From Alphaproteobacteria bacterium (GTDB taxonomy: Bacteria; Pseudomonadota; Alphaproteobacteria; UBA9219; RFNS01), in assembly GCA_037200005.1 (NCBI GenBank), contig JBBCGY010000002.1, positions 460,667-524,666 on the forward strand: a stretch of DNA of 64,000 nt, in the 5' to 3' direction. Shown one piece after another: positions 35,399 through 64,000 of the stretch. Numbering within the stretch: position 1 is the stretch's first letter; the number at the start of each line of letters is the position of its first letter. The notes under the pieces are model-generated. The model saw only the letters and a program-made list of their open reading frames with translations. It was not told the origin of the DNA and made no database searches. Made by a program: the position numbers and the translations under genes.

Positions 35399-35400
35399 GA

Positions 35401-36701: not shown

Positions 36702-36705
36702 CGCG

Positions 36706-37799: not shown

Positions 37800-38435
37800 A
37801 TGCGTATCGTTGCATTATTGGTGCTGGCTTTTTGTCTGGTTGCCGGTTCTTCGCCTGTCATAGCACAGGACGCTAACCCCGGCGCGTCTACCGATACCAG
37901 CAACCAATCCGCCGCGCAAACCACTCAGCAGTGCCAAATTCCCATGCCCCCCGCGCCGTCTGCGGCGAACAATATGCCCATGGCAGGGATAAACTCCATC
38001 GGAGCAGGCATGGCTGGGGGCATGTCGGATCCCGCCCAAGACGCGCTGCAGAAAAAACTTCAGAACAATTTTCAAATCCAAATGATGAGGGCGATGCAGG
38101 CCAAGCTTGAGCAAATGTATGGGGCTAAGCTCCCCAAGCTGCCGGCGGGAGATTACGGCAAGGTATGCCCTCTTTGTTATATACTGGTCGGTGCCAATCG
38201 GTCGGACATTTTGCAGTGCACCTGCCCTGTAGGCGATGATAATAACAGTTACAAGCGCATAGATCTCGCCCTGGACGCTTGCAAGCCAGGTGAGAAGGTG
38301 TCTTATTGCGGCATGGATCTTGTGTGCGGAGATTGCATCAGCGCGAAAATTGAGCCCAGCGTTGAAAACTCTACTGAAATTAAAAGCTCTGCTAAAAAAA
38401 AGCGAGAAAGCTTCAGCGGTTGCAGTTCCCGATAA
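37800..38435 (+). CDS. secreted Cys-rich hypothetical protein; annotated stop follows an A8 tract, and the -1 frame continues as a Lys-rich tail to 38550
   Basis: Signal peptide MRIVALLVLAFCLVAGSSPVIAQ. Cys cluster CPLCY...CTCP...CKPGEKVSYCGMDLVCGDC. A8 at 38394-38401. Confidence 0.5.
   Translation: MRIVALLVLAFCLVAGSSPVIAQDANPGASTDTSNQSAAQTTQQCQIPMPPAPSAANNMPMAGINSIGAGMAGGMSDPAQDALQKKLQNNFQIQMMRAMQAKLEQMYGAKLPKLPAGDYGKVCPLCYILVGANRSDILQCTCPVGDDNNSYKRIDLALDACKPGEKVSYCGMDLVCGDCISAKIEPSVENSTEIKSSAKKKRESFSGCSSR
38394..38401 (+). repeat. A8 homopolymeric tract inside the CDS
   Basis: gctAAAAAAAAgcgag. Removing one A fuses the CDS to a 48-aa K/E/P-rich C-terminal extension ending at 38550. Confidence 0.9.
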
Positions 38436-38553
38436 AAAAGACCCCGGCAAAAAGGATGCCGAGAAAAAAGAGAATAAAAAACCGGCCGCTAAACCCGGCT
38501 TGCTGGAAATGCTTTTCGGCAAAAAGCCCGCCGAAGAACCAGCCAATTAAAAA

Positions 38554-39069
38554 TCAGCTTTTGTCCTGCTGCCGGGCATTCGTCGCCAGGCTGCGCGATG
38601 GCTCGCATGCGGGGAGATTGTTGTTGGCGCGAGTCCATATTTGGCTTTGTCCCAGAAGCGGCGTCAGAACATAACCTCTGAGTTCAATGGCGTCCGGGCT
38701 TTGGGGACGAATTTCCGAGCTGAATTTCGTGCCGTGCCTCGGGCTGTATATCCAGCCGCCGGAGAACTTGCCGTCGGCTTCGGTAAAGCCGCCCATGAAT
38801 TGCATGCCGCATAGCGGGCGGTTGCGCAATTTTGGATCGGGATTCTTGTCATCCATATCCGCGGCGGGCGCGTCATTCGGGTCTGGCTTCAGCCAATAAA
38901 ATTTGCCGCACAATTCCTGTCCGCACGGATAAAGCTCGACGGCGCCGCTTTTATCTTCGGTAAGCCATACACCTTTAACCGAGGTGAACGGATCGCTTGC
39001 CGCCATTGCTGTCCCTGGACTCAAAATAGCGGCCAAAAATGCGATACGAATAATGTTTCTTGTGAACAT
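38554..39069 (-). CDS. DUF2147-like periplasmic protein
   Basis: Signal peptide. GVWLTEDKSGAVELYPCGQELCGKFYWLK matches the DUF2147 N-terminal signature. Confidence 0.55.
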   Translation of the reverse strand: MFTRNIIRIAFLAAILSPGTAMAASDPFTSVKGVWLTEDKSGAVELYPCGQELCGKFYWLKPDPNDAPAADMDDKNPDPKLRNRPLCGMQFMGGFTEADGKFSGGWIYSPRHGTKFSSEIRPQSPDAIELRGYVLTPLLGQSQIWTRANNNLPACEPSRSLATNARQQDKS

Positions 39070-39225
39070 GCAACCATAACCTCATGATAAACATGAAGAG
39101 AACCTAGCATATAATATGTTGTTGTGGCTGCAACAGTAAGGGAAAATATATCACAGCCGGTTGCTAATTAACCATGATCCTGTTAACCATCATGCTGATT
39201 CAATTGTAGCGCTGGAGTAAACGAA

Positions 39226-39552
39226 ATGACCAATCGGGTAATTTATTGGAAGGCGATAGGGTTCAGCATTCTCGCCCTGTTGCTGACGGTAGCCTATGCG
39301 TTGCGCGTATACAGCAACAACGATCTGCGGCGCGTCATCGATGCGCGGCAGCAGCAGATCAATGCCGCCCAGCCTTTAGGTCAGCTGTATCAAGGCGTGG
39401 CGCAGTCTTTGATGGGCTATGCCATGGAACGGGATGATCGGGCTGTCCGGGATTTTCTGACCCAGGAAGGCATCGAAGTCCCGGCCGCCAAGCCTGCCGC
39501 GCCGACGCCTCAAGATAGCCCGGCCAAACCGGCTCCCACTAAATCCAAATAA
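39226..39552 (+). CDS. membrane-anchored hypothetical protein (108 aa)
   Basis: N-terminal TM IYWKAIGFSILALLLTVAYAL, then a Q-rich helix and a Pro/Ala-rich tail. Confidence 0.45.
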   Translation: MTNRVIYWKAIGFSILALLLTVAYALRVYSNNDLRRVIDARQQQINAAQPLGQLYQGVAQSLMGYAMERDDRAVRDFLTQEGIEVPAAKPAAPTPQDSPAKPAPTKSK

Positions 39553-39572
39553 TGTCGATAGAGGGTAAAGCG

Positions 39573-39926
39573 ATGAACTCGAACGAATCGTCCTGCAAAT
39601 TTAATCTGGCGTCTCTTTCCGAATGCCCTGTATTGCCGATAGCGATCCTGGCTCTCGCCGTTGTCGGGTTGGCCGGGGTTCAGGTGTCCCTGGCATGGTC
39701 CGATGGCACGGTGCTGCGTCAGGTGCGCGAGAACCAGACTCAGCCTTTAGCCCAGAGCCTCGAACTGCAGGCCAAGCTTGATCGCCTTGCGGTCGGAACT
39801 TTGCAGCTTGCCGATAGCGGCAATGCCAATGCTAAAGAGCTTGTGGAACGCATGAAGCAGGCGGGTGTCACGATCAATCCCGTCAAGCCTGCCGATGGCA
39901 ATGGCGGCGTTAAGCCCGCTAAATAA
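39573..39926 (+). CDS. membrane-anchored hypothetical protein, paralog of the preceding gene
   Basis: Same architecture. Tails are similar (GIEVPAAKPAAP vs GVTINPVKPADG). Alternative start at 39552. Confidence 0.45.
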   Translation: MNSNESSCKFNLASLSECPVLPIAILALAVVGLAGVQVSLAWSDGTVLRQVRENQTQPLAQSLELQAKLDRLAVGTLQLADSGNANAKELVERMKQAGVTINPVKPADGNGGVKPAK

Positions 39927-39937
39927 AGGCTGCCGAC

Positions 39938-40598
39938 TTAAGCGGCTACCGACGATAGCGGCATCTGATGCATTGCCTGATTGAGATAGCTCTCGATATG
40001 CTGCGTCAGTTCGTCCAGATGCTCGTTGAAAAAGTGACCCGCGCCGGGCACCAGACGGTAATCGATGGTGATGCCGCGCTGATAGGACAGCTTATGCACC
40101 AGCTTGGCGACGGCGGCTTCTGGCACCAACTCATCGGCGGCCCCATGGAGCATCATACCGGAAGTAGGGCAGGGCGCCAGGAAATTGAAATCGAGCAGGT
40201 TGGCGGGCGGGGCGACCGAGATGAAGCGGTCGATTGACGGCGCATCAGCAATTGCATGCCGATCCATGAGCCGAAGGAAAATCCCGCGACCCATACGGCG
40301 CGGCAATTCGGATTGAAGCTCTGCAGCCAGTCGAGCGCCGACGCCGCATCGGCCAATTCGCCTTCGCCACGGTCATAGCTGCCCTGGCTGCGGCCTACGC
40401 CGCGAAAGTTAAACCGAACGGTCGCGAAATCGCGCTTGGCGAACGCGTTATACATCGCATAAACGACTTTGTTGTTCATCGTTCGCCATGCTGCGGATGG
40501 GGATGCAAAATCAACGCGATGGGAGCGGTCGGAGACTTGCCGGGGCTATAGCGTCCCTCGAGACGGCCTGCGGGGCCCGTAAACAGAATTTCTGGCAT
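39938..40598 (-). pseudogene. alpha/beta hydrolase with two apparent 1-nt deletions (likely homopolymer sequencing errors)
   Basis: Three minus-strand frames concatenate to MPEILFTGPAGRLEGRYSPGKSPTAPIALILHPHPQHG|TMNNKVVYAMYNAF...GFSFGSWIGMQLLMRR|IDRFISVAPPANLLDFNFLAPCPTSGMMLHGAADELVP... Shifts lie at G-run ~40487 and C-run ~40266. Confidence 0.6.
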
Positions 40599-40897
40599 AA
40601 GAGCGAGTCTCCACTATTATCTAATTGAGAAACATGGAAAAATTTCCATATTCTGCTTTCTCTATATATCGCAATCCGGGCGGCAAAATTCAAGCATCTT
40701 GTATAAAACCGGAATAAATATTAACTGGCTTCTTAGAAAACACGCTTATATATTTGGAATGTAAGAACAATCCATGTTGTATAAGCATGCTATTCCGATG
40801 TTGGATTTTGCTGGATTGCATTATTAACCTATAACGATTCTTGAATTGCGATGATGATCGCTGATGATTAAGGCGTCGTGATGGCGGGCAGCAGGGC

Positions 40898-41996
40898 ATG
40901 ATTGATCTCGATTATAATGCGACGGCGCCGGTTTAAACCCGCCGTGCGCGAGGCCATGAGCGCCGCGCTGGAACTCGGGGGAAATGCCTCCTCGGTTCAT
41001 GGATTGGGCCGCAAGGCCCGCGCCGCCGTGGAAGAAGCCCGCGAACGGGTCGCGGCTATGGTGAAGATCAAGCCTGCCCACGTCTTTTTTACCGGCGGCG
41101 GCACCGAGGCCAATAATTGGGCGGTGAGGGGGTGGCAAGGGCAGGTTCTGGCCTCCGCCATCGAGCATGATTCAGTGCTGGCGTCAGTGCCAGGCCCCTA
41201 TATCCCCGTTACTGGCGACGGGATCGTGAATCTCGAAGCCCTAGAACAGATGCTTGCCGCGTCGGCGGCCCCGGCGCTGGTTTCGGTCATGCTGGTCAAT
41301 AATGAAACCGGCGTCATTCAACCGATCCGCGAGGTGGCCGATATAGCCCGCCGCCATCGCGCCACCGTCCATTGCGACGCCGTGCAGGCCGCCGGAAAAA
41401 TCCCGCTGGATTTTTACGATCTCGGCGTGGATATGCTGAGCCTTTCCGCCCATAAATTCGGCGGGCCGCAAGGGGTTGGCGCTTTGGTGCTGGCGGATAA
41501 AATACCGCTGGAGCCGCTGTTGCGGGGCGGCGGGCAGGAGAAACGCCGCCGGGCGGGGACGGAAAACGTCGCCGGGATCGTCGGTTTCGGAACGGCGGCG
41601 GCGCTGGTACCGGAAGAGTTGGCGCGGCAGGGTCAGCTGCGCGCCTGGCGCGACGCGCTTGAGGAAGGCATAAGAAATTATGCTCCCGACGCGATCATCG
41701 CGGGCGGCAAAGCCGAAAGGGTCGCCAACACGGCCTGCGTCATCATGCCGGGCATGAAGGGGGAGACCCAGGTCATGGGTTTCGATCTCGCGGGACTGGC
41801 GGTCAGCAGCGGCTCGGCCTGTTCCAGCGGGAAAGTCGCCTCATCCCATGTGCTAAAGGCCATGGGTTATGATATTATGCAGTCCGGCTCCGCCATGCGG
41901 CTTTCGCTGGGTTGGGGCAGCCGCGCGGAAGATGTCGACGCGGCAATAGAAAACTGGCAGAAGTTACACCGTCGCGCGCGCGGGCAGGCAGCATGA
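40898..41996 (+). pseudogene. cysteine desulfurase (NifS/IscS family) with apparent +1 T insertion at 40932-40934 near the N-terminus
   Basis: ATG 40898 encodes MIDLDYNATAPV then TAA. The next frame continues KPAVREAMSAALELGGNASSVHGLGRKA...SAHKFGGPQGVGAL...SSGSACSSG. Deleting one T of GTTTAAA restores a single ORF. Confidence 0.7.
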
Positions 41997-42038
41997 AAGA
42001 TCGCGATAAGCATAAAACGACAAGAATAAGGGGAGCGC

Positions 42039-42665
42039 ATGAGCAATAAGATCATCGGCATCATCGAAGCCAAGGACATGATGAGCACCGATATCGTGTG
42101 CTGGTTCTGCCAAAAGCAGCTGTCGCCGCGCGCCCTGTTCTGCAACCATTGCGGCGCGATCCAGCCGGTGCGGCCGCTGGACCATTTCGCGCGCCTCGGC
42201 ATCGAGCGGCGCATCGATATCGACCAGACCACGCTCGACCGGCAATTCGCGGGCATGCAGAAAACCCTCAGCCCCGACCGTTTCGCCATCCGCACCGCGA
42301 CCGAGCGCACCTATGCCGCCAAGCAGCTCGAAGCCCTCACGGCGGCCTATGAAGTTTTGCGCGATCCGGTGAAGCGCGGACGCTATTGGCTGACGATGCA
42401 TAACAAGGAGTTCGAGGACGCCCAGGCCACCATCGCCATCGTCCAGGAAATGCGCCTGCAATGCGAGCAGGCCGGCTCCGCGCCCGAGATCGACCGCGTG
42501 GCGCATAAGGCCACGCAGGCGTTCGAGGAAGGCATCACCCGCCTCATGCAGTCGCTGCGCCAGCAGAACTGGCAAGGCGCGAACGAAACCCTGCTCGAAC
42601 TCGACGGCATGGAAAACATCCTCTCCGAAGCCCGCCAAAAGCGGCGGGATATGGAGAAGAGGTAG
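42039..42665 (+). CDS. hscB: Fe-S cluster co-chaperone HscB (J-domain) with N-terminal Cys4 zinc-ribbon
   Basis: CWFCQKQLSPRALFCNHCGAIQP, then a J-like domain DHFARLGIERRIDIDQTTLDRQFAGMQKTLSPDRFA and a C-terminal helical domain. Confidence 0.65.
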   Translation: MSNKIIGIIEAKDMMSTDIVCWFCQKQLSPRALFCNHCGAIQPVRPLDHFARLGIERRIDIDQTTLDRQFAGMQKTLSPDRFAIRTATERTYAAKQLEALTAAYEVLRDPVKRGRYWLTMHNKEFEDAQATIAIVQEMRLQCEQAGSAPEIDRVAHKATQAFEEGITRLMQSLRQQNWQGANETLLELDGMENILSEARQKRRDMEKR

Positions 42666-42667
42666 GG

Positions 42668-43135
42668 TTAGGTCGGCGTCGGGACTTGAATGACCCGAAC
42701 GCCTGTTTCCTGAAGAAAAGACAGGCTTTGAAAGGGTGGCTTCTGCTCCCTTACGGAAAAAATCACTGTGCCGATCTGATACTGGGCGATCAGTTTTGCG
42801 CAAGACATTCTGTTGGGATCGCTGCGGCGGAAACAAGGCTCATGCGTGGATATGAGAATGCCGCCTTCGCATGCGACAGCTTTCTTGGCCGCTTCGCGGA
42901 ACAATAGCTCTTCGGCGTGGCCGAGACCGTGATCGGCTCCGCTATAGGTTCCATGGCATCCGCCGCCTTTATCGATAAGAATGGCGCCGACGGCTAAAGC
43001 GCCCTCCCGAGTCAGCAGATGTTTGGGAGTCCGCGACGCGAGCTCGAACGCGCAGCTTATCAATTGAGCCGCGATGCTGTCCGTAACGCCTTCCATGGCT
43101 TGCCGAACAAGATCAGGCGGAACAATGATTGGCAT
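42668..43135 (-). CDS. cytidine/deoxycytidylate-deaminase-family zinc-binding protein
   Basis: HAEELLF (H[AC]E motif) and [14 protein letters not shown] (PCxxC-like) deaminase zinc ligands. Confidence 0.55.
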
Positions 43136-44506
43136 TGGCTGCTCCATTTGAGACACCGCTATAAATGACTACGCCGCCTTGCTTTTCTCCTCCAGCCACG
43201 CTCCGAAATCCGCTTTCCGCCCGCGCGGTGTAGGCTTTCTTGCGCTCGCGGCCGCCGGGGCCGGTGGTGATCGGCGGGAATAATCCGAAATTGACGTTCA
43301 TCGGCTGGAAAGTTTCGGCGCTGGCCGCGCCGGTGATATGCGCCAATAGCGCGCCCATCGCGGTCGTGCGCGGCGGAGGCTGCATCGTCTGCCCAAGCCG
43401 CGCCGCCGCTGCGAACCGTCCCACGAGAATCCCGATCGCGCCGGATTCGACATAGCCCTCGACGCCGGTGATCTGCCCCGCGAAGCGGATATTGGGTTTC
43501 GCCTTGAGCCGCAATTCGCCGTCGAGCAAACGCGGGCTGTTGATGAAGGTGTTGCGATGCAGCCCGCCGAGGCGCGCGAATTCGGCGTTTTCCAGGCCGG
43601 GGATCATCTTGAAGATGCGCGTCTGCTCGGCATATTTCAACTTGGTCTGGAAGCCGACCATATTGTAGAGCGTGCCGAGCGCGTTATCCTGCCGCAGCTG
43701 CATCACGGCGTAAGGCCGCCGGCTGGTATGCGGATCGGTGAGGCCGACCGGCTTCATCGGGCCGTAGCGCAGCGTATCCGCGCCGCGCTCGGCCATCACT
43801 TCGATGGGCAGGCAGCCCTCGAAATAGGGCGTGCTCTTTTCCCATTCCTTGAAGTCGGTTTTTTCTCCCGCCAGCAGCGCCGCGATGAAAGCCAGATATT
43901 GCTCCTTGTCCATCGCGCAATTGATGTAGTCGCTGCGGTGCCGCCGGGGCCGACTTTGTCGTAGCGCGACTGCATCCACGCCTTGCTCATATCGATGCTC
44001 TCGCGATAGAGGATCGGCGCGATGGCGTCGAAGAAGGCGAGCGACTCCTCGCCGGTCAGTGCGCGGATCGATTCCGCTAGCGCCGTGCCGGTCAGCGGCC
44101 CGGTGGCGATGATCGTCTGATCCCATTCGGGCAGCGCCGCGATTTCCTCCCGCGCCACGGTCAGCAGCGGATGCGCGGTCAGCTTCGCGGTGACGGCCTC
44201 GGCGAAACCTTCGCGATCGACAGCCAGCGCGCCGCCAGCCGGAACCTGATGGCCCGCCGCCGTCTCCATGAGGATCGAGCCGCAGCGGCGCATTTCGTCA
44301 TGCAGCAGCCCGACGGCGTTATAGTCCGCGTCGTCGGAACGGAAGGAATTGGAGCAGACCAGCTCGGCGAATTGATCGGTCTGATGCGCGTCGGTCTTCA
44401 CGACCGGGCGCATTTCATGCAGCACGACGGGAATGCCGGACTGAAGTAGCTGCCACGCCGCTTCGCTGCCCGCCATGCCCGCGCCGATGATGTGGACGGG
44501 AGTCAT
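43113..44506 (-). pseudogene. trmFO: methylenetetrahydrofolate--tRNA-(uracil54-C5)-methyltransferase TrmFO with one apparent 1-nt deletion (~43941-43950)
   Basis: N-part [20 protein letters not shown]...[15 protein letters not shown] in frame A. Continuation ...[32 protein letters not shown]...[14 protein letters not shown]...[10 protein letters not shown] in frame B. Junction sits in a GGCCCCGGCGGC run. Confidence 0.75.
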
Positions 44507-45111
44507 TACTCCTTCGCGTCCGCCGCGACCTGCATCTTGACGATCTTGGTGGGCTCGCTGACGGTGCCGTTATTCCAGGTTTCGCCCCGCTTGATGAGGT
44601 CGAGGAATTCCATGCCGCCGATCACTTGTCCGAAAACCGTATATTGGCCGTCGAGATGCGGCGCCTCGTCGAGGCAGATGAAGAACTGGCTGTCCGCCGA
44701 GTCCGGATCGGCGGCGCGCGCCATTGAGACCGTGCCGCGAAGATGCGGGGCCTTGGAGAATTCGGCTTTCAGCTTTTGTCCCGAGCCGCCCGCGCCGGTG
44801 CCCGTCGGATCGCCGGTCTGGGCCATGAATCCTTCGATCACGCGATGAAAGCCGAGGCCGTCGTAGAAACCTTGCCGCGTCAGCTCTTTGATGCGGGCGA
44901 CATGCTTCGGCGCAAGATCGGGGCGCAATTGGATGATGATGCGTCCGGGCTTAAGGTCGAGATAGATCGTGTTCTCTTTGTCGGTAATCACGGGCTGCGC
45001 CTTTTCCTTATCCATGTCGCTCTTATCCTTGTCTGCCGCTAGAAGAGAAGCCGGTTGTAATAGCATCAAAGCGGCGGCGATGCCCAGCAGGGTTTTGAAA
45101 GCTTTGTTCAT
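44506..45111 (-). CDS. ppiA: peptidylprolyl isomerase, cyclophilin type (periplasmic)
   Basis: Signal peptide, then [23 protein letters not shown]...[21 protein letters not shown] cyclophilin signature. Confidence 0.85.
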
Positions 45112-45602
45112 GATGTCTTCTCCATGGTTAGCAGATATTCGATCATGCCGGTTATCCCCGGGCTGTCGGGCGGCGTGATGGACGAGTACCAATCGATCAG
45201 CTGTCCCTGGGGACCGATCAGGTATTTGTGGAAATTCCATTTCGGGCTGCCGATAAATCCGGCCCAGGTATTCGCCCATTGATAGAACGGATGAGCCTGC
45301 CTGCCTAGCACATGATATTTAGCGGTCAGCGGAAAATCGACTCCGAAATTGCGGGTGCAGAATTCGTCGATAGTTTTGGCGTCGCCCGGCTCCTGCTTGC
45401 CGAAATCATTGCAAGGCACGCCCAGCACCATCAGTCCGCGGCCTCTATAATTGAGCCATAACTGCTGCAAAGCCGCGTATTGCTTCGTGAAACCGCATTG
45501 CGACGCCGTGTTGACGATCAATATGGGCCGGCCCTGCCAAGCCGAAAGCGGCAACGGCACCCCATGCAGCGCATCGAACATAAAGTCATAGGCCATGGTC
45601 AT
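45108..45602 (-). CDS. glutathione peroxidase
   Basis: LIVNTASQCGFTKQYAALQQLW...VLGVPCNDFGKQEPG GPx motifs. Confidence 0.85.
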   Translation of the reverse strand: MTMAYDFMFDALHGVPLPLSAWQGRPILIVNTASQCGFTKQYAALQQLWLNYRGRGLMVLGVPCNDFGKQEPGDAKTIDEFCTRNFGVDFPLTAKYHVLGRQAHPFYQWANTWAGFIGSPKWNFHKYLIGPQGQLIDWYSSITPPDSPGITGMIEYLLTMEKTS

Positions 45603-45612
45603 GAGAGCCTCG

Positions 45613-47850: not shown

Positions 47851-47911
47851 GGCCGTAAACTGCCAGACCGCAATCACCCCGTAAAGGGATGAAAAGATTG
47901 GGGTCTTGGGC

Positions 47912-48419: not shown

Positions 48420-48577
48420 GATAATATTTCCTTTGGGTTTAATATGCTTCGCCGATCATAACCCATGATTGCGCATGCGTGAATAGCCGAAATACTTTCA
48501 TGTTTTGCCCGCTTTGCCGCGATGCCAGAGATGTGTTAACCAGAAGTGATTCAGGTAAAATCGTGCGGGAACCGACC

Positions 48578-52218: not shown

Positions 52219-52233
52219 AAACAGGAATATCCA

Positions 52234-54287: not shown

Positions 54288-54478
54288 ATAATTCCTCTTG
54301 CTTGCTTCAGGCGAATATAGCATCGAAACGCCGAAAGTAATGCTGAAAGCTTTCGCCCGGCGATGGGCTTTTTTTATGGTTAACCAGGACAAAATGAAAG
54401 TTTTGGCGGTGCGGAAGAATTGATATAGTGTCGACCGGATATAGGCTCAGCCAGCCGATTTTTTATTATGAGTAGAAC

Positions 54479-55672
54479 GTGCAAAAATTCATTGTTCCCA
54501 TTCCGAATTCCGCCGGTTACGCCACCGATATCATCGGTCATGTCTTCGCTTATGCGTCTTCACTGAAGGTCGGTGGCGCACCGGCGCAATTCGAGCTGCA
54601 TGCGGATGAGCGTTTTCAGGCCATGGTCGCGGATGGCGCCGAATCTTGGCGCGTCGATGTTTCTGTCGCCTATCCCTATAAGCGCACGGATATTCCAGGC
54701 TCCGCCGAAGTTACGCCCGCGCAGCAAGCGATCGTCGAACAGCTTTCGCAGCAGTCGGGGGCCAGCGTTATCACGAATGCGGAAATTGTACAAAAACTTC
54801 ATGCCAATGGCCCGGAATTCTATAAGCTCATTCCCTCTCCTTCGCCTGCGGGCATGCTGCTGGCTAAGCCTATTTCTTGGTTTGACCCTTCGGATGATAA
54901 ATATGAATCCATGATTGCCCGGCTGATACAGGCCGCCTCGGCGGGACGGCAGGAAGCCGGGCTTCCACCCGACGCGCCCGCGACGTTTCTGTTCTTCTTC
55001 GGCGGCAAATCGCTGACGGACTCCGAAGCCAATGCCGGTGCGAAGAAACTTGGCGGCATGGTGAAGTCGGTATGGGCCGAGGATCATATTCCCGGCATCG
55101 CCGCTTTCCAGAAAGAGGCAGCTCAGCGAGGCGAAGCGATCATTCCGGTCTTCGCTTTGCATGGCAACGCGGTGCAATTGCAGGAGCGCATCGACGAATT
55201 TAATCAGCAGGGCCTCGCGCCGCAAGCGACCAATCTCGGCATCGATTGGAACAATTTCGAGGAGCCGGCGACGGCGTTTCTGATAGCCGGGCTTCACCAT
55301 AAAGCGATTATTCTCGGCAATGGCAGTACGCCGCACCATCTAGCGCTGAGCGTCAACGATGATACTTCGCCTGCAAAGATCATCATCATGCGCCCGTCAT
55401 GGAAGAATATGCCCGGCGAATCCAGATGGGACGGAGCGGAAGATGCGGGGGCGGTGAAGATCGTCTCGGCTGGGTTCAGCTATGAGCAGATCATGGAACT
55501 GCTCAAGCCCGACAGTTTAACGCAGCAAGGCCCGGCCATCGCCAACCAGCTGATCCGGGATTCCTCGCGCAATATCTGCCAGGAAACCTATGCGCAGCTG
55601 ATTGCCGAGCTTGGCCCGCCGCACCCGCAGCCCAAATCGTCGCCGGTCGCCGTGCCGACTCATACGCCATGA
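54479..55672 (+). CDS. hypothetical protein (397 aa), no recognisable domain
   Basis: Long intact ORF with ordinary composition. No signal peptide or TM helix evident. Confidence 0.45.
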   Translation: MQKFIVPIPNSAGYATDIIGHVFAYASSLKVGGAPAQFELHADERFQAMVADGAESWRVDVSVAYPYKRTDIPGSAEVTPAQQAIVEQLSQQSGASVITNAEIVQKLHANGPEFYKLIPSPSPAGMLLAKPISWFDPSDDKYESMIARLIQAASAGRQEAGLPPDAPATFLFFFGGKSLTDSEANAGAKKLGGMVKSVWAEDHIPGIAAFQKEAAQRGEAIIPVFALHGNAVQLQERIDEFNQQGLAPQATNLGIDWNNFEEPATAFLIAGLHHKAIILGNGSTPHHLALSVNDDTSPAKIIIMRPSWKNMPGESRWDGAEDAGAVKIVSAGFSYEQIMELLKPDSLTQQGPAIANQLIRDSSRNICQETYAQLIAELGPPHPQPKSSPVAVPTHTP

Positions 55673-55708
55673 ATTGACTCTCGGCGGGCATGAATTTACC
55701 AATCATGC

Positions 55709-56491
55709 ATGCTTATCGACTCCCACTGCCATCTCGACTTCCCGGCGCTTGCGAAGGATCAGCAGGGCGTCGTCGAGCGCGCGCGCGCGGCGGGGGTGGG
55801 CCGGTTTCTGACGATCTCGACGCATATCACGAAAGCGCGGCAGGTGATCGGCGTCGCGGAATCCTATCCCGACGTGTTCTGCACCATCGGCGTGCATCCG
55901 CATCATGTGGCCGAGGACGGCGAGCAGGTGACGGCGGCTGATTTGGCGGCGAAGGCCGATCATCCGAAAATCGCCGCGCTGGGGGAAACCGGCCTCGATT
56001 ATTTTTACGATACCGCGCCCAGGCAGCGGCAGCAGGAAAGCTTCCGCGAGCATATGCGCGCCTGCATCGCAACCGGCCTGCCGATGATCGTGCATAGCCG
56101 CGATGCCGAGGAAGACACGGCCTCCCTTATCGCCGAGGAGCGGCGCGGCAAGGAAGACAAACTGCATGGCGTGATGCATTGCTTCAGCTCGAAGCGCATA
56201 TTGGCCGAAGCGGCGCTGGCGATGGGATTTTACATATCCTTTTCCGGCATCCTGACCTTCAAGAAATCCGAGGAATTGCGCGCCATCGCGCGCGACGTGC
56301 CGCTCGACCGGCTGCTGGTCGAAACCGACGCGCCGTTCCTCGCCCCGGAACCTTATCGCGGCAAACAAAACGAACCGGCTTTTATCGTGCATACCGCCGC
56401 CGTCTTGGCGCAGGTCAAAGGGGTAACAACCGACCAAATAGCGGCAATCACCACGGAAAATTTTTACCGCTTGTTCACGAAGGTGAACTGA
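55709..56491 (+). CDS. tatD: TatD-family metal-dependent DNase/hydrolase
   Basis: MLIDSHCHLDF...GVHPHH...GETGLDYFY...HSRDAE...ETDAPFLAP. Confidence 0.85.
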   Translation: MLIDSHCHLDFPALAKDQQGVVERARAAGVGRFLTISTHITKARQVIGVAESYPDVFCTIGVHPHHVAEDGEQVTAADLAAKADHPKIAALGETGLDYFYDTAPRQRQQESFREHMRACIATGLPMIVHSRDAEEDTASLIAEERRGKEDKLHGVMHCFSSKRILAEAALAMGFYISFSGILTFKKSEELRAIARDVPLDRLLVETDAPFLAPEPYRGKQNEPAFIVHTAAVLAQVKGVTTDQIAAITTENFYRLFTKVN

Positions 56492-56572
56492 TCCTGTACT
56501 TCAAGGATAGAAAATATAATTTCGATATCAAAATAAATAGTTGCTTCAGACTTTTCCGATATCACTGAGGGC

Positions 56573-56956
56573 ATGAATGGCTTCACTTTCATGCAAAAAC
56601 TTGATCCGGTTTCCGCCTGGGCGTGGCTGCGGAGCCATGAGAAACTCAAGGATATGCGCGACCTGATGGGCCGGATGCGTTGCGCGGCGCAGACCGACGA
56701 TAAAATGACGCCGAAAATGATGCGGCTGATGAAGGATATCGCCTTCGAGGAAGATTCGGAGCGCCAGGCCATTCTCGCCATCGCCGATGCGGAACGCCGG
56801 CATCGCCAGCGCAAGGCGAACAAGCAGCTTAAACGGATTTGTCAGCCGCCGCTTCTACAGCCGCAAAAACCAAAAGAAGATATGGAGTGGTTGTTGGGAT
56901 TCTTTATTGGCCTTGCGCTGGTTCCGCGGCCTAATCCCGGCAATGCGAACAGGTAG
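56573..56956 (+). CDS. hypothetical protein (127 aa)
   Basis: Intact ORF. Basic and helical. C-terminal hydrophobic stretch WLLGFFIGLALV. Confidence 0.3.
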   Translation: MNGFTFMQKLDPVSAWAWLRSHEKLKDMRDLMGRMRCAAQTDDKMTPKMMRLMKDIAFEEDSERQAILAIADAERRHRQRKANKQLKRICQPPLLQPQKPKEDMEWLLGFFIGLALVPRPNPGNANR

Positions 56957-56961
56957 AAGGA

Positions 56962-57291
56962 TTAGCGGCGTTTCGCGTCTTCCCCGGCAAGCGGCACAAG
57001 CGCGATGCGGAAATCGGGAAATTTCTTCTTAAGCACGGCGCGGAAGGCGATAAGCCCGGTGCCGATGCCGATGAGGGTGCCGAGGGCGGCAATTATTCCC
57101 GCCAATGTTTGCGAGTCCATGCCTAAGGCAAGACCCATATAACCGGCCGCGAGGCCTATGATGAAACTGCTGATAAGACCGAGCAACCCCGCGCGCCAGC
57201 AGAAGGCCCACCAGATTTTTATGATGCGTTTCCAGGTGAGGTCCAGCGGGGTGGTCGGGGCTGGGGAGGCGGAAGAAGGCATGGCATTCAT
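56962..57291 (-). CDS. small inner-membrane hypothetical protein
   Basis: Two to three TM helices (IWWAFCWRAGLLGLISSFIIGLAAGYMGLALG...IIAALGTLIGIGTGLIAF). Confidence 0.4.
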   Translation of the reverse strand: MNAMPSSASPAPTTPLDLTWKRIIKIWWAFCWRAGLLGLISSFIIGLAAGYMGLALGMDSQTLAGIIAALGTLIGIGTGLIAFRAVLKKKFPDFRIALVPLAGEDAKRR

Positions 57292-57323
57292 CGAATAAGC
57301 CTGTTGCTAAGACAGCCTTACTT

Positions 57324-57483
57324 GATTTTGCCTTCTTTGAATTTGACGTGCTTGCGCAGTTTTGGCGTCGTATTTGTTCAGTTCGAGCTTTTTGGTGTTG
57401 TTTTTCGGGTTTTTCTTCGTGACGTAGAAAGTACCGGTGCCGCCTTCGCTGAGCATCTTGATCGCGTTTTTGGTCTTAGCCAT
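57324..57483 (-). pseudogene. rpmG: 50S ribosomal protein L33 with an apparent extra A/T in a T4 run (57356-57359)
   Basis: MAKTKNAIKMLSEGGTGTFYVTKKNPKNNTKKLELNKYDAK then out of frame. Removing one A from GCCAAAACTGCGC yields ...KLRKHVKFKEGKIK*, the canonical L33 C-terminus. Confidence 0.75.
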
Positions 57484-57612
57484 TGTCATTCACCTGAAAA
57501 TTCAGCCATGGAAGCCCGGAACATCTTGAAAATCAGCCATTTTGTCAAGCTTTTGTTGCCGGAAGAGCAGAAACCGGTTAATGGTTAAAATCACGCTATC
57601 AGGGAAGCCGCC

Positions 57613-59405
57613 ATGTTCAAGCAAATCATGAAATATACCGTCGCGTCTTTGCGGCAATCGGGTTTCTGGTCGTTTTGGCAGTCGCTGGAGGCGTTTGGCT
57701 GGCGATGCATAAGGCGTCCGCGCCGCCGAAGATCCCCCGAGAAAATTATTCTGGTCGTGAATTTTAACACCGACCTGGTGGAAGAAGCCGAGGATATGCC
57801 GATATCGCTCAGGTCTTTCGTCGATACCATGACCCAGGATCGGGAGGTTTCGGTGCATGATGTCGTCGGCGCTCTGGAGCGCGGCAGCAAAGATGCGCAT
57901 GTTCTCGGCGTCATCGGGCTGTTCGGCAAGAATCTGCCTCATATGGCGCATGGCCAGGAAATTCGGGCCGCCCTGCAGAAATTCCGCGAGGCGGGAAAAT
58001 TCTCCTATGCTTTTTCTCCCAGCTTCGGCGATTTCGGCCCCAGCAACAGCGCTTATTACCTCGCCTCGGCCCTTCGAGAAAAATCTGGGTGCAGCCGGTC
58101 GGCACGGTCGGCCTGGTCCGGATTGCAGATAGAACAGCCTTTCGCCCCGCGCCGCCCTGGAGAAAGCCGGGGTGAAAGCGCATTTCGTGCAGCGCGAAGA
58201 ATATAAGACCGCGTTCGAATTCCTGAGCGAAGATAAAATGCCCGCGCCCGCCCGTGAAATGATGCAGTCGATGCTCGACGACATGAACGAGCAGCTGGCG
58301 TCCGGGATCGCGGCAAGCCGGAGTCTGCCGATCGAGCGGGTCAAGGAATTGATGGCCGGAGGGCCGTATACCGCGCAAGAGGCGCTCGATAAAAAACTGA
58401 TCGATCAGATCGGCTATAGCGACGAGATCGATAAAATCATGAATGACACCTATGGCAAGAAAGCCATGATGCGTCCCGAGGAGTATGTCGACTTGCCGCT
58501 CGACATGAAGAAAAACCCCATGCCGAAAGAGACGGTGGCGTTCATCGTCGCGCACGGCGAGATCGCCGATCGCGCCGAGCATTACAGCCCGCTTTCCCGG
58601 CGGCGAGACCATGGACGCCCGTGAAGTGGCCGAAGCCTTGCGCGATGCCGCCGAGGATAAGGAAGTGAAGCTGATTATCGTCCGCGTCGATAGTCCCGGC
58701 GGCTCGCCGTCGGCCTCGGAAACGATACGCCGCGCTTTGGTCAAAGCGCAGGACAAAGGCAAGAAGGGTCATCATATCGATGGGCGCCATGGCTGGTTCC
58801 GGCGGCTATTGGATCGCCATGAACGGCGACCGGATTTTTGCCGATCCCGCGACTCTCACCGGCTCGATCGGCGTCCTGGGCGGCAAGTTTATTCTTGCGG
58901 GCTTATACGAAAAACTGGGCATCAATTGGGATGTGCTGCAGACGGGGGGGAATATGGGCATGTGGTCGATGCTGCATGATTATACGCCCCGCGGAACAGG
59001 CGCGGATGGATGCGTTGATCGACGACACTTATAATACTTTCCCGCGAGAATGTTTCGAAAGCGCGAAAGATTCCGATGGATAAAATGCCGGCGGTCAGCA
59101 AAGGGCGCGTCTTTACCGGAGCGCAAGCCGTCAAGAACGGTCTTGTCGATGAACTGGGCGGTTTGAGCGCGGCCATTGCCTATGCCAAGACCAGCATGGG
59201 TCTGCAGCCTACGGACCTGATCATGCTCATAGCAGTTTCCGCCGCAGAAACGCCCGCGGAAAAGCTGGAACAGATGCTAAGGCAATATTTCGAGCCGAAA
59301 GTCTCTATGCCCAATCTCGGCGTGGCCATGAATCAATTGCATGAGTGGCTCGCGAGCATAGCGGCGCAGCCCGTCGCTCGAATGCCTTACATCGGGTTGA
59401 ATTAA
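57613..59405 (+). pseudogene. sppA: signal peptide peptidase SppA (protease IV) broken into >=6 frame segments by homopolymer indels
   Basis: Segments in different frames concatenate to ...HVLGVIGLFGK...FSPSFGDFGPSNSAYYLASALREK|IWVQPVGTVGLVR...KAHFVQREEYK...IVAHGEIAD...|TMDAREVAEA...LIIVRVDSPGGSPSASE...KGKK|VIISMGAMAGSGGYWIAM...|AEQARMDALIDDTYNTF|...MDKMPAVSKGRVFTGAQAVKNGLVDELGGL. Shifts include A5 at 58079-58083, GGG at ~58770 and CCCC at ~58990. Confidence 0.7.
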
Positions 59406-59419
59406 TGGAGCGTCGTATC

Positions 59420-59990
59420 CGGTCGGTTATTCTTATTTTCTTCCGCCAGATGCTTGAGATTGGCCTGTAAATAATCCCAGCGGTAATGAGGGTGAGCACG
59501 CCTGAGATCCACAGCAGGGTCGAGCCGATAAGAATCGACGGCACCGACTCAGGTCCGTAATCGCCGATGATAAGAAACGGACAGGGCCACGAATTGCAGC
59601 GTGGTTTTCCATTTCGACAGCTTGCTGACCGGCACGCTGACTTTGACCTCGCCAGGAACTCGCGCAACCCGGACACGGCAACTTCGCGCATGAGAATGAT
59701 GATCGCGGGGATGATCGCCGCGCCGTCGATGGCCCGCGTATTGGCCAGGTCAAGATCACCGCCGCCACCAGCATTTGTCCGCGATGACATCCATGACTTT
59801 GCCGAAACTGGAGACCAGGGCCTGCTTGCGCGCCAGATAACCGTCGAGCCAGTCGGTAATCGCCGCCGCCGCGAACAGGATAAGCGCCAGCCACGCGCTC
59901 CAGGTCGCCGACATCAGGATAAGGCCCCAGAATGATCGGAATGATCGCTATCCGGGCTACGGTCAATTGATTGGGAAGATTATCGAGCAT
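59420..59990 (-). pseudogene. pgsA: CDP-alcohol phosphatidyltransferase (PgsA-like) with multiple frameshifts
   Basis: N-terminus [21 protein letters not shown]... Later pieces ...IILMREVAVSGLREFLA... and ...GSTLLWISGVLTLITAGIIY... lie in other frames. Confidence 0.5.
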
Positions 59991-60115
59991 CGACGATATT
60001 TACCTATGATTTGCCCCACAATATACCGGAAAATGCGGTGGTGAAAACGGTTCATTTGCCTGCCGGGCGGGTCAAACATTGAATTATGGGGAATTTTACG
60101 GCCAATATCGCGCCA

Positions 60116-61198
60116 TGAATCTCGTCATTAAAATCGGCACGGCGGCGCTCAGCCGGGAAGACGGAACCCCGACCCCGTCCTGCTCGGCAATCTCGCGGCG
60201 GAGATCGCCTCCCTGAAGCGCGAGGGGGCCCATGTCGTGCTGGTCTCTTCGGGCGCGATGGGAACGGGGCGGACTATCCTGGCAGCCCAGGGCCGCGCGC
60301 TGCGCCATTGCGACCAGGTTGGCGGAGCGGCAGATTCTCGCCGCGCTCGGCCAGCCCAGATTGATGACGCTGTATCAGGATTTGCTGGCGCCCCACGGCA
60401 TCATCCCGGCGCAGATTTTGCTGACGAAGCAGGATTTCCGCACCCGCGATCATCACAAGAATATCGCGCATCTGTTCGCCATGCTGCATGGGCAACCGCA
60501 TATCCTGCCGGTCGTGAACGAGAATGACAGCGTCGCCATCACCGAACTTATGTTCACCGACAATGACGAGCTGGCGGGCCTGCTCGCGGCGATGCTCAAT
60601 GCCGACCGCCTGATTATCCTGTCGAACATCGCGGGGGTCTATGATTGCCCGCCGGACGAGCCGGGAGCGGCGGTCATTCCCGTCATCGACTGGCAGGAGA
60701 AGAAATCCGCCGTGACCGTCGGAAAATCGAAAACCGGGCGCGGCGGCATGGCCAGCAAGCTCGGCATCGCCAAGAAAATGGCCATGCTCGGCATTCGCAC
60801 GCATATCGCCTCGGCGCGCGAGCCGGAGATCATCGGCCGTATCATGCGCGACGAAACGGGCCGGCACGGTTTCCCTGCCGCTATCCGGCAAGCGCGGCGC
60901 CGTAAAGCGGTGGCTCGGCAGCGAAGCCCATATGACCCAAGCTTCGGTGACCGCCAACATATGTCTTGCCGCCATGCTGCGCGACGAAGAGAAGGTGTTC
61001 AGCGTGCTTCCGGTAGGCTTGAGCGCCATCGACGGCGATTTCGACAAAGGCGATCTGGTGCGGATCGTGGACGAGAATAAAAAACTGCTCGCGCTCGGCG
61101 TGGCCCGCTACGGTTCGAGCAAGCTTCGCCCGGTGCTGGAAAAGAAACAGCAGCCGGTTTTCGTGCATTACGATCATCTGCACAGAACGGAAGGCTGA
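60116..61198 (+). pseudogene. proB: glutamate 5-kinase (ProB, with PUA domain) with >=3 frameshifts
   Basis: MNLVIKIGTAALSREDG / PVLLGNLAAEIASLKREGAHVVLVSSGAMG / ATRLAERQILAALGQPRLMTLYQDLLAP...PVVNENDSVAITE...GGMASKL / ...GDLVRIVDENKKLLALGVARYGSSKL lie in different frames. Confidence 0.7.
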
Positions 61199-61199
61199 G

Positions 61200-61539
61200 A
61201 TGGACATTATTCCCTTCGATCAGTTCGCCGCCGTCGAATTACGCGCCGGTACTGTGGTGCGCGCCGAAACTTTTCCGCAGGCGCGCAAGCCTGCTTATAA
61301 AATCTGGGTGGATTTCGGCCCGGAATTCGGCGTCCGGCAAAGCTCGGAGCAGCTTACGGTGCATTACACGCCGGAAAGTTTGATCGGCAAGCAAATCGTC
61401 CGGCTGCCTCAATCTCGGCGAGCGGAATATCGGCGGCTTCATGTCGCAATTTCTTTGCACAGGCTTTCCCGACGAGAACGGCGCGGTCGTGCTCGTCAGT
61501 CCCGACAAACCCGTTCCAAACGGAGCGAAGCTGTTTTGA
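61200..61539 (+). pseudogene. csaA: tRNA-binding protein CsaA/Trbp111-like with one frameshift (~61395-61405)
   Basis: MDIIPFDQFAAVELRAGTVVRAETFPQARKPAYKIWVDFGPEFGVRQSSEQL...LIGKQIV then +1 frame LNLGERNIGGFMSQFLCTGFPDENGAVVLVSPDKPVPNGAKLF*. Confidence 0.6.
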
Positions 61540-62805
61540 TGGATATGACGAATAATCCCCTAACTTCTATCGGCCGGCAGGCTAAGGCGGTGGCGGCGCT
61601 TTTGGCGCAGGCTTCCCCTGAGGAAAAAAAATGCGGCGCTGACGGCGATTGCCGCGGGATTGCGGGCGCGGGCGGGCGAAATTCTCGCCGCAAACGCCGC
61701 CGATATGGACGCGGCGCGGAAATCGGGCATGGATGAGGCGAAGCTCGACCGGCTGCGGCTTGACGAGAGGGCGCGGCTGGCGTCGATTGCGGCTGGCGTC
61801 GATACGGTGCGCGGGCTGCCCGATCCTGTCGACCGGCTGCTTTCCGAAACGGTGCGTCCCCAACGGTCTCAGGATCGAAAAACGCAGCGTGCCCGCTCGG
61901 CGTGATAGGCATTATTTTTGAATCGCGCCCCAATGTTACGGTCGATGCCGCCGCGCTATGCTTGAAAATCGGGGAATGCCTGCATTCTGCGCGGAGGAAG
62001 CGAAAGTTGGCATAGCGTGAAGGCGCTGGCGGGCGTTATCCAGGACGCTCTAGCGGCATCCGGCCTGCCGCGCGATGCGGTGCAGATTTTGCCTTCGACG
62101 GACCGCGAACTGGTCGGCGCGTTATTGCGGCTTGAGGATTATGTCGATGTCATCATTCCGCGCGGCGGGAAATCGCTGATCGCCAGGGTGCAGCAGGAAA
62201 GCCGGATTCCGGTCTTCAGCCATCTGGACGGCATTTGCCATACCTATATCGATGCCGAAGCCGATGCCGCGAAAGCCATCGCCGTGACGGTCAATGCCAA
62301 GATGCGGCGTCCGTCGGTCTGCGGCGCGACCGAATGCCTGCTGCTGCATCGGGATATCGTAGCGACAACGGGCCGGACGGTCATCGAAGCTTTGCTGGCA
62401 GCGGGCTGCGAAGTGCGCGCGCCGGAGGCGTTGCTGCCGTTCCATCCGCTGCTGAAACGCGTGGAGCCGGGCGATTACGGCCATGAATTCCTCGCGCCGA
62501 TCATCGCGGTGGCCGTGGTGGCGGATGCGCATGAAGCCGTGGATTTCATCAATTGCCACGGCTCGCAGCATACCGACGCGATCATCACCGAGAATGGCGC
62601 AACGGCGGATTATTTCCTGCGGCACGTGAACAGCGCGGTTGCGATCCACAATGCCTCGACGCAATTCGCGGATGGGGGCGAATTCGGCAAAGGGGCGGAG
62701 ATCGGCATCGCCACCGGCAAGCTTCACGCGCGCGGCCCCGTGGGGCTGGAGGAGCTGACGACCTATCAATATCGCTTGCATGGCAGCGGGCAAGCGAGGG
62801 GTTAA
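61539..62805 (+). pseudogene. proA: gamma-glutamyl phosphate reductase (ProA) with >=3 frameshifts in the first 500 nt
   Basis: MDMTNNPLTSIGRQAKAVAALLAQASPEEK(A8 tract)|NAALTAIAAGLRARAGEILAANAADMDAARK...ETVRP|[11 protein letters not shown]|[37 protein letters not shown]|[12 protein letters not shown]... then intact to the stop. Overlaps the csaA stop (ATGA). Confidence 0.7.
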
Positions 62806-62893
62806 GCCGCGTTAACCAAACATCGCTTTATTTACTTTCGCGAAAATAAGGTAGAGTGAAGCGATTGCATGCAAATATGTCGATGGGGCATCC

Positions 62894-63253
62894 ATGGCGC
62901 AGAATTATTCTCTGGATCAGATCACGGAAATCGTTAAAGGGCCGGCGAGCCGGATCGTCGAATGCGCCAGGGAAATGGGCGCGGGTTTCCATAAGCAAGT
63001 CGCGTGGATTGCTGCCCGCGATATGTGTTTGGCCACAGAATTCTGCAGTTTGGTCAAAAGCAATGCCGGCTTGGATGAAATATTGGCCGGAAGAGCGGAA
63101 TTCAGCATGAAGCATCTGGATACCCAGCTGGCAGGCCGAATGGCCGCGTTGCTCAAGCCTCCCCTGGAAGCAGACCCCGCTCCGAATGAGCCGAAATGCG
63201 TTCGCTCCGATGTGGCTGGCGGCTTGTCAAATCTGATGTTCGGGTTGGGCTGA
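62894..63253 (+). CDS. hypothetical protein (119 aa)
   Basis: Intact ORF. No motif. Confidence 0.3.
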
Positions 63254-63288
63254 ATATTTTCTCCTGAACATTTTTGTCCCAATATTCT

Positions 63289-64000
63289 TCAATGAAACCA
63301 CGCATAAATCTTCCGCGCCAGACTGGCGCTGATGCCTGGCGCTTTCTGTAAATCGTGAACTCCCCGCTTCCGTCACCGCGCGTGCCGAGCCGAAATGGTG
63401 CAGCAGCGCCTTTTTTCGCGTCGGCCCGATGCCGGGGACGTCATCGAGCGGCGTCGAGCTTATGGCTTTCTGCCGTTTTTGCCGGTGCGCGCCGATGACG
63501 AAACGATGGGCTTCGTCGCGGAGGCGCTGCAGATAGAACAGCACGGGGTCGTTGGGCTGCAGCGTGAAATTCGTGCCGTCCGGCAGGTAAAATCTCTCCC
63601 GTCCGGCGTCGCGATCCGGCCCCTTGGCGATGCCGACGGCCATGATGTCGGTCAGGCCGAGTTCGCCGAGAATTTCCGTCACGGCGTTGAGCTGCCCCTG
63701 TCCGCCGTCGATCAGCAGCAGATCGGGCCATTGCGCGGTCTTGCGCTCGGAATCTTCTTCCATAAAGGCGGCGAAAGCGGCGAAGCATCACTTCGCGCAT
63801 CATTGCGTAATCGTCGCCGCCCGCGGATTCCGCGAAGCCTGGAGCGGCGGTGCTTGCCTGCTGCCCTTTGATATTAAACTTCCGGTATGACTTTTTGTCG
63901 AAGCCTTCCGGCCCGGCGACGATCATCGCGCCGGAAGCGTGGCGGCCCTGAATATGCGAATTGTCGTAAACCTCGATCCGCTTCGGCGTGTCGGACAATT
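63289..64000 (-). pseudogene. uvrC: excinuclease ABC subunit C (UvrC), C-terminal part only (gene continues beyond window end), with >=2 frameshifts
   Basis: RNaseH-like/HhH C-region. ...[10 protein letters not shown]...[17 protein letters not shown]...[11 protein letters not shown] then +1 frame [23 protein letters not shown] (GGGG run ~63350). Frame break near 63760. Confidence 0.7.

Follow-up and report, generated by a model that had tools for sequence, protein, structure and literature searches.

Read-sized patches of one-base indels break genes in a PacBio HiFi metagenome contig and are most probably uncorrected sequencing errors

The 64,000-nucleotide stretch of DNA analysed here (the window) contains a series of genes whose reading frames are interrupted by very small insertions and deletions. 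Using frameshift-tolerant protein-to-DNA alignment together with a comparison to read-level assemblies, we counted 37 small indels in 14 genes, the first at 38,394 and the last at 63,764. All are 1 nt long except for one 2-nt event, and insertions outnumber deletions by 27 to 10. Homology alone located 28 of the 37 events, 25 of these in the dense core described below, and nine were compared with Logan k-mer assemblies of the raw run SRR28211700 (one of four runs), which overlap the window over 28,867 bp. A sequence-only reading had proposed that many genes are broken by 1-nt indels from 38,394 on, that the density is highest after 57 kb and that no long gene is affected in 0-38 kb, and all three points are borne out. 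It had also described a steady gradient towards the 3' end; what we see instead are four kb-scale blocks with sharp edges, having 0 events per kb in 1-38,393, 1.07 in 38,394-48,634, 0 in 48,635-57,300 and 4.0 in 57,356-63,764. No frameshift was detected in 1-38,393. When overlapping ORF pairs from 0-38 kb were scanned against Pfam, no family turned out to be split between neighbours, and 24,311-38,393 matches the read-level assemblies exactly. Frame switches called by a codon-usage model in 0-38 kb were rejected as frameshifts, since they are ordinary adjacent genes.

The sparse block opens with a hypothetical gene for a secreted protein, where a single event, an A8 run at 38394-38401 that is A7 in the Logan contig L179, splits in two an ORF that spans 37767-38546 once repaired. 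An alpha/beta hydrolase on the minus strand (39938-40600) has two 1-nt deletions, one at 40225-40245 (junction LLMRR/IDRFISV) and one at 40478-40490 (junction HPHPQHG/TMNNKVV), and in a frameshift-tolerant alignment the repaired protein is 66% identical to its homologue (L112). These had been placed in a C-run near 40266 and a G-run near 40487; the sites lie rather near 40235 and 40483, in runs of only 1-2 bases. A NifS/IscS-like aminotransferase (plus strand, gene to 41996) is cut within its N-terminal motif DYNATAPV/KPAVREA at the T3 run 40932-40934, which, judging from the sequence, is probably T2 in truth. A look-up with the 208-aa gene at 42039 placed it on no Logan contig. TrmFO (minus strand, 43113-44506) carries a 1-nt deletion at 43925-43950, near 43937, just before DYINCAM, and the repaired protein covers positions 4-434 of the 441 in the NCBIfam TrmFO model with 682 bits. 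In lptD (minus strand) there are three 1-nt insertions within 46714-46808: G6 for G5 at 46714, G4 for G3 at 46747 and T2 for T1 at 46808. They compensate each other (net +3), leaving the ORF open with 31 codons scrambled and a product of 718 aa as compared to 717 aa in the Logan version; the codon-usage frame model independently flagged 46742-46806. The earlier view that lptD is intact was therefore mistaken. An extra T at 48080-48085 (minus strand, T6 in the contig and T5 in reads) splits a 168-aa hypothetical gene into calls of 63 and 119 aa. Finally, the leader of a DacC-type carboxypeptidase (plus strand, 48614-48639) has two 1-nt deletions, C3 for C4 after 48614 and C5 for C6 after 48634; the exact true leader is uncertain, and its two Logan differences are less clear repairs. 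A further indel proposed in the T4 run 50885-50888 is unconfirmed, as the contig equals the read-level assembly there and no homologue supports it.

The dense block starts with rpmG (minus strand, 57356-57366), in which one 1-nt insertion lies in the T4 run 57356-57359 or at 57366. The repaired L33 is 91% identical to that of a relative (L167) and matches positions 1-56 of 56 in the NCBIfam model. The 67K-type sppA (plus strand, 57613-59405) carries 10 indel events, with sites at 57643 (a deletion), ~57732, ~58078 (2 nt, in an A5 run), 58116, 58147, ~58590, 58767, 58993 and 59042, and six references agree on the positions. Repaired SppA has 587 aa and covers model positions 11-524 of 590; aligned over 99% of its length with intact SppA proteins of 594-600 aa, it shows 59% identity. 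In pgsA (minus strand, 59433-60000) six events, namely insertions at 59927 (C4) and 59578 and deletions at 59772, 59749, 59651 and 59480, fall at identical positions with 10 of 10 references; the repaired protein covers model positions 2-181 of 183 and is 75% identical over nearly its full length to intact relatives. The sequence-only reading had given per-gene frameshift counts that hold as lower bounds and fall short as totals, the fuller counts for these two genes being 10 and 6. The three events of proB (plus strand, 60115-61198), a deletion at ~60169-60181 and insertions at ~60297-60324 and ~60856, are placed to within about 30 nt, the references being only 33-51% identical. One weak ProB reference (39% identity) put a stop at 60903. 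A csaA-type gene for a tRNA-binding protein (plus strand, 61200-61535) has one insertion near 61405 and matches model positions 4-113 of 113 when repaired. Four insertions fall in proA (plus strand, 61540-62805), in the A8 run 61624-61631, the C4 run 61858-61861, at ~61883-61892 and in the A4 run 61965-61968; repaired ProA covers model positions 5-417 of 418 with 552 bits. Two events lie in uvrC on the minus strand, one in its C-terminal part at 63362-63365, where the contig has C4 and reads (Logan contig L176) have C3, and one at 63764-63766, with A3 in the contig and A2 in reads. An apparent further UvrC shift near 63,299 was rejected, since it lies past the true stop codon and came from stitching.

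The dense core, 56938-62234, holds 25 of the 37 events. These 25 fall within 4.9 kb, a rate of about 0.5%, which is within the Q20 limit for HiFi reads. No Logan contig for 56.94-62.23 kb came from any look-up tried, including those with the 109-aa gene at 56965 and a ProA fragment, which returned the GenBank contig only. In the database searched there were no near-identical independent copies of SppA or PgsA, the best matches being at 59% and 75% identity.

Repair restores ordinary proteins. L33, SppA, PgsA, ProB, CsaA, ProA, UvrC and TrmFO all score above the cut-offs of their NCBIfam equivalog models, and for seven the match runs almost from end to end. The alignments behind the counts are free of in-frame stops. 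Every lesion is an indel of 1-2 nt, nonsense codons and larger lesions being absent, as would be expected of an artefact. Among species-representative genomes MetG identity reaches 77% at best and synteny extends only over dacC-tmk-holB-metG-tatD, so these loci supply no references for the broken genes. A chimeric ProB+ProA+TrmFO query, tried as a route to close relatives, drew eukaryotic fused P5CS proteins instead. Scanning metagenomes with a ProA fragment gave no relative above 58% identity, and the loci found were used only as ProA/ProB references.

The indels are associated with homopolymers. Eight of the nine exactly located sites lie in runs of at least 3 (binomial p = 3e-6) and four of the nine in runs of at least 5 (binomial p = 1.5e-5). 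Near the 29 alignment-located events, 13 runs of at least 4 were observed where 6.3 are expected (p = 0.004). This is the enrichment that a sequencing artefact would give, though some sites fall outside long runs. Several PgsA, SppA and hydrolase events are at runs of 2-3, which occur near almost any position by chance. The claim that each pinpointed indel sits in a short homopolymer thus stands as an enrichment and fails as a universal statement, given the hydrolase sites in runs of 1-2.

The origin of the DNA bears directly on these observations. An exact TatD look-up identified the window as an internal stretch of the GenBank contig JBBCBH010011404.1 (535,876 bp), the contig coordinate being 343,296 minus the window coordinate; the damage is thus located mid-contig, not at a contig end as had been supposed. 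The platform had been guessed as 454, Ion Torrent or uncorrected nanopore, and was in fact PacBio HiFi: the contig comes from a deadwood metagenome sequenced on the PacBio Sequel II with CCS accuracy of at least 99% and a mean HiFi read length of 18.3 kb (PMC11613949). Four samples of a complex community were co-assembled with hifiasm-meta r058 at default parameters, just 41% of the reads map back to it, and the source paper describes no polishing step (PMC11613949). An artefact would call for an error-prone platform without polishing, and HiFi reads with hifiasm-meta r058 fit that description (PMC11613949).

The Logan assemblies give a check at read level. Over the 28,867 bp they depart from the contig nine times, each time by a single base in run length and never by a substitution; the two share raw reads and technology, so that a systematic HiFi miscall would be common to both. 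There are no differences over 24311-34135 (L181) and 53122-56937 (L082), one over 34107-39528 (L179, the A8 at 38394), six over 44018-52155 (L173) and two over 62235-63929 (L176). Seven of the nine fall within 5.75 kb, whereas the clean blocks have none over 21.4 kb (p = 2e-5). At seven of the nine, gene pieces are rejoined or conserved sequence is recovered in the Logan version, the two DacC-leader sites being less clear. The indels are therefore absent from the consensus of raw reads at all nine comparable sites, the other 28 lying outside the comparison. The correct k-mers are backed by two or more reads in 38.4-39.5, 44.0-48.6 and 62.2-63.9 kb, yet hifiasm-meta kept the errors, so single-read coverage is not the whole explanation in those three stretches.

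We are highly confident that the broken genes are one-base sequencing errors kept in an unpolished long-read metagenome contig, and do not reflect decay or another biological feature. The proposal of sequencing or assembly error over genome decay is in this respect supported by both the provenance and the Logan comparison. The assembler hifiasm joins error-corrected reads into a contig without consensus polishing, and what errors HiFi reads still contain are for the most part one-base indels that favour homopolymers. From what is generally known of the assembler, a read chosen where overlaps are few would carry its own residual errors into the contig. If the contig was tiled read by read, the blocks would mirror the quality of the underlying reads. 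Those at 1-38.4 and 48.6-57.3 kb would be good or well corrected, the one at 38.4-48.6 kb would have about 1 error per kb, and 57.3-63.8 kb would come from a read of roughly Q23-24 (~4-5 errors per kb) that may have had no second agreeing read in its central 5.3 kb. Gene callers would then split genes at every indel. Low local coverage is what we infer from the missing Logan contigs at 56.94-62.23 kb together with the 41% of reads that map.

Homopolymer indels that fragment gene calls are known from unpolished nanopore and PacBio assemblies (PMC9262707). The present case shares with these the homopolymer-enriched one-base indels, the adjacent out-of-frame gene pieces and the disappearance of errors in the read consensus; a dependence on coverage would be a further shared trait if read depth is low here. 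It differs in that HiFi reads with hifiasm-meta are usually thought to need no polishing, that insertions dominate, that many runs are short and that the errors come in read-sized blocks and are not evenly spread.

Among the other explanations, genuine recent pseudogenisation, with real frameshifts in a bacterium in early genome decay, could account for the many broken genes, several in a row, and the 25 events in 56.9-62.2 kb are known from homology alone. As in the pseudogene-rich genomes of Sodalis and Mycobacterium leprae, many neighbouring genes are frameshifted. The genomes of those recently host-restricted bacteria are in addition marked throughout by read-confirmed nonsense mutations, deletions, IS expansion and relaxed constraint, and we see none of these further signs here. 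The read consensus has another run length at nine of nine comparable sites and visibly mends the gene at seven, nonsense codons and larger deletions are absent, as are substitutions over 28.9 kb, and the repaired proteins stay above equivalog cut-offs. Additionally, the essential rpmG and pgsA are hit up to 6 times each and sppA 10 times, and the lesions sit in sharp-edged kb-scale blocks beside clean ones, which fits reads and not mutation. Read-confirmed lesions of mixed type under relaxed constraint were thus not found, and we consider pseudogenisation very improbable.

Strain heterogeneity, in which the contig and the Logan assemblies would represent two co-existing strains that truly differ at these sites, has in its favour that four samples of a complex community were assembled together. 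Between strains substitutions would dominate, while we see 0 of them against 9 run-length indels in 28.9 kb, and at the seven clearest sites it is the contig version that breaks or scrambles the gene; we give this reading very little weight. The genes prfB and dnaX likewise change reading frame within the gene, each at one conserved site that has a defined slippery sequence. We see next to no chance that programmed ribosomal frameshifting or slippage in transcription restores the frames in vivo. A- or T-runs do occur at some sites (A8 at 38394 and 61624), but the sites are dozens in number, unconserved, up to 10 per gene and in both directions, and many have no slippery motif. The homologues of relatives show no interruption and neither a shared shift site nor a single conserved slippery site, and reads have A7 for the A8 at 38394.

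The importance of retained sequencing errors here is one of data quality only: in read-sized patches of a public HiFi metagenome contig, indels reach 4-5 per kb. Such patches inflate gene counts and make false pseudogenes of essential genes, and, as the three compensating insertions of lptD show with their 31 scrambled codons, indels can hide inside seemingly intact ORFs. Pseudogene counts, protein databases and selection analyses that use this or similar unpolished low-coverage HiFi contigs should polish first or use frameshift-aware annotation. It is very doubtful that a few of the 25 core indels (56.94-62.23 kb), or the junction at 50,866-50,888, are genuine mutations; if they were, they would mean that sppA, pgsA, proB or proA had truly been inactivated, and very recently, in an uncultured deadwood alphaproteobacterium. 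The indels go on past the window, at 64,761 in UvrC, near 71.0 kb in TrmJ and near 72.5 kb in CysS.

Tracing of the reading frame by codon usage showed single proteins spread over different frames in their successive parts, and the same switching appeared in tblastn searches with the E. coli ProA, ProB, PgsA, UvrC and SppA. The events, each an indel of one or two bases, were located with a purpose-written frameshift-tolerant protein-to-DNA aligner whose references were homologues, some taken from related loci and others from database searches. Together with a comparison to read-level assemblies this gives 37 events in 14 genes of the window (27 insertions and 10 deletions), so the 1-nt indels that the sequence-only reading had seen breaking many genes are real and were undercounted. 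SppA carries ten events (one deletion, eight one-base insertions and one two-base insertion, located in the A5 run at 58079-58083), ProA four insertions (A8 at 61624-61631, C4 at 61858, about 61883-61892 and A4 at 61965), ProB three events, CsaA one and L33 one insertion, all by frameshift-tolerant alignment. Ten references agree to the base on six events in PgsA. UvrC has three, one of which (64,761) lies just past the window end. A NifS/IscS-like gene is hit once, in T3 at 40932, TrmFO once at about 43937, and an alpha/beta hydrolase by two aligned deletions at about 40235 and 40483, the former having been misplaced at about 40266. The alignments behind these counts contain no in-frame stop codons; one weak ProB reference (39% identity) put one at 60903.

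Once the frame is corrected at each indel, the genes are whole. Repaired L33, PgsA, ProB, ProA, UvrC, CsaA and TrmFO score above the curated cut-offs of their NCBIfam equivalog or subfamily models and match these essentially over the full length: ProA, for example, aligns to model positions 5-417 of 418 (552 bits), TrmFO to 4-434 of 441 (682 bits) and PgsA to 2-181 of 183. Repaired SppA scores 335 bits against a cut-off of 311, covering positions 11-524 of 590; aligned to intact proteins of 594-600 aa, it shows 59% identity across 99% of its length. Identity is 70-75% between repaired PgsA and intact proteins of 186-198 aa, and 91% between repaired L33 and that of the closest relative, which shares the rpmG-sppA-pgsA order. 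Neither the models nor these identities give any sign of relaxed constraint in the repaired genes.

Looking up the exact TatD sequence (55709-56488) retrieved two contigs, a 3.8-kb one in the Logan assembly of run SRR28211700 and GenBank JBBCBH010011404.1, which is 535,876 bp long and belongs to assembly GCA_037975565.1. The window matches the GenBank contig without any difference at 279,296-343,295 (contig position = 343,296 - window position), thus mid-contig and not at the contig end that had been supposed. The source study (PMC11613949) sampled beech deadwood (n=4) and used PacBio Sequel II HiFi reads averaging 18.3 kb at a CCS accuracy above 99%, so the earlier guesses of 454, Ion Torrent or nanopore can be set aside. 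Its co-assembly was made with hifiasm-meta r058, and only 41% of the reads map to the resulting contigs. The host is an uncultured alphaproteobacterium whose MetG is 77% identical to that of its best relative among the species-representative genomes searched.

Logan assemblies are made from the k-mers of one run each, and singleton k-mers are dropped. Five contigs from SRR28211700, thus from the same reads and technology as the contig, overlap the window over 28,867 bp and differ from it at no position in 24311-34135, at one in 34107-39528, six in 44018-52155, none in 53122-56937 and two in 62235-63929. All nine differences are single-base changes of run length, the contig reading A8 at 38394 (A7 in the reads), G6 at 46714 (G5), G4 at 46747 (G3), T2 at 46808 (T1), T6 at 48080 (T5), C3 at 48614 (C4), C5 at 48634 (C6), C4 at 63362 (C3) and A3 at 63764 (A2). 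Strain variation could make two assemblies differ, but would be expected to bring substitutions, of which there are none in these 28.9 kb, and we consider it very improbable. The read version brings back biology: at 38394 two ORFs merge into one secreted-protein ORF, at 48080 calls of 63 and 119 aa become one 168-aa gene, and the C-terminus of UvrC is uninterrupted again. In the DacC leader both C-run differences (48614 and 48634) are certain, and the choice of the correct leader is not fully clear.

The gene lptD (45613-47877), which had been listed as intact, is affected as well. Its one-base insertions at 46714, 46747 and 46808 total +3 and scramble 31 codons, and the read version gives back a plausible DLYYFQDLRPGE segment. 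Because compensating insertions leave the ORF open, such damage escapes ORF-based checks and the gene appears intact.

The events do not follow the gradient towards the 3' end that had been described, but sit in blocks: none per kb in 1-38,393, 1.07 in 38,394-48,634, none in 48,635-57,300 and 4.0 in 57,301-63,800. In the Logan comparison the second block shows seven differences over 5.75 kb and the clean blocks show none over 21.4 kb (p = 2e-5). Past 63,800 the events thin out (64,761, about 71.0 kb and about 72.5 kb); beyond the window a SpoU/TrmJ-type methyltransferase (about 71.0 kb) and CysS (72.53 kb) each occupy two frames, and the indel errors of the contig therefore extend there at lower density. 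Logan coverage breaks off at 56,937 and restarts at 62,235. Within this gap, look-ups of a ProA fragment and a 109-aa gene match the GenBank contig alone, and the database searched holds no protein with an identity above 75% to repaired PgsA; a second agreeing read consensus was thus not found for the 5.3-kb core. The core contains 25 events, an error rate of about 0.5% or Q23 (25 events in about 4.9 kb), within the HiFi read acceptance limit of Q20.

The placement in homopolymers is significant as an enrichment. Eight of the nine exactly known sites lie in runs of at least 3 bases, which hold 15.6% of bases (p = 3e-6), and four in runs of at least 5, which hold 1.9% (p = 1.5e-5). For the 29 events placed by alignment, the longest run inside a distance of 6 nt has a mean length of 3.55, compared with 2.92 at random positions (p about 0.001), and 13 have runs of at least 4 where 6.3 are expected (p = 0.004). 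It does not extend to every event, as several in PgsA, SppA and the hydrolase lie at runs of only 1-3 bases.

Real pseudogenisation would also break frames, but is contradicted at all nine testable sites, and the lesion spectrum of indels only, the repeated hits in essential genes and the block edges speak against it as well; we regard it as highly unlikely. Programmed frameshifting, which would restore the frames, is less credible still, the sites numbering dozens, unconserved and in both directions. The frameshifts are almost certainly artefacts, carried by a HiFi metagenome contig that is unpolished, and the preference for sequencing or assembly error over genome decay holds, since the read-level consensus contradicts the indels wherever the two can be compared. 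The assembler joins corrected reads with no polishing step, and residual HiFi errors are chiefly homopolymer indels. If coverage of this genome is thin, the read picked for each stretch would retain its own residual errors, and each block would be an individual read, quality differing between reads. We infer this read tiling and local depth, and likewise why correction failed despite at least two other reads at 38.4-39.5, 44.0-48.6 and 62.2-63.9 kb. The consequence of such residual errors for gene calling has been described for long-read assemblies (PMC9262707). The importance of the finding is in data quality; otherwise its scientific interest is low.

Several other features were seen. On the minus strand at 50312-51084, ORFs of 70 and 184 aa lie in different frames 5 nt apart; no homologues were found for the pair, the codon model gives no clear coding signal and the read-level assembly is identical to the window. 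A frameshift proposed there in T4 at 50885-50888 was not confirmed, being the same in both assemblies and having no homologue, and was left uncounted. Opposite holB and metG, a 649-aa ORF at 51439-53388 (minus strand) was rejected as a gene; it is a shadow ORF driven by GC. Between metG and tatD, at 53772-55672, lie a 206-aa ORF (minus strand) and a 397-aa ORF (plus strand) with no Pfam matches; since tatD directly follows metG in one relative, this suggests a lineage-specific insertion. At 36000-39200, where GC falls to 52.5%, lie three very small ORFs and regulators of the HTH/XRE type. This segment, mostly non-coding by the codon-usage model, atypical in composition and differing from the read-level assembly only at 38394, may be foreign DNA. 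Beyond the window, beside uvrC, an intact transposase of the IS1595 family (67197-68192) and hypothetical genes occupy an island at about 65.2-70 kb (44-47% GC against 58% overall), which is probably an acquired or mobile segment.
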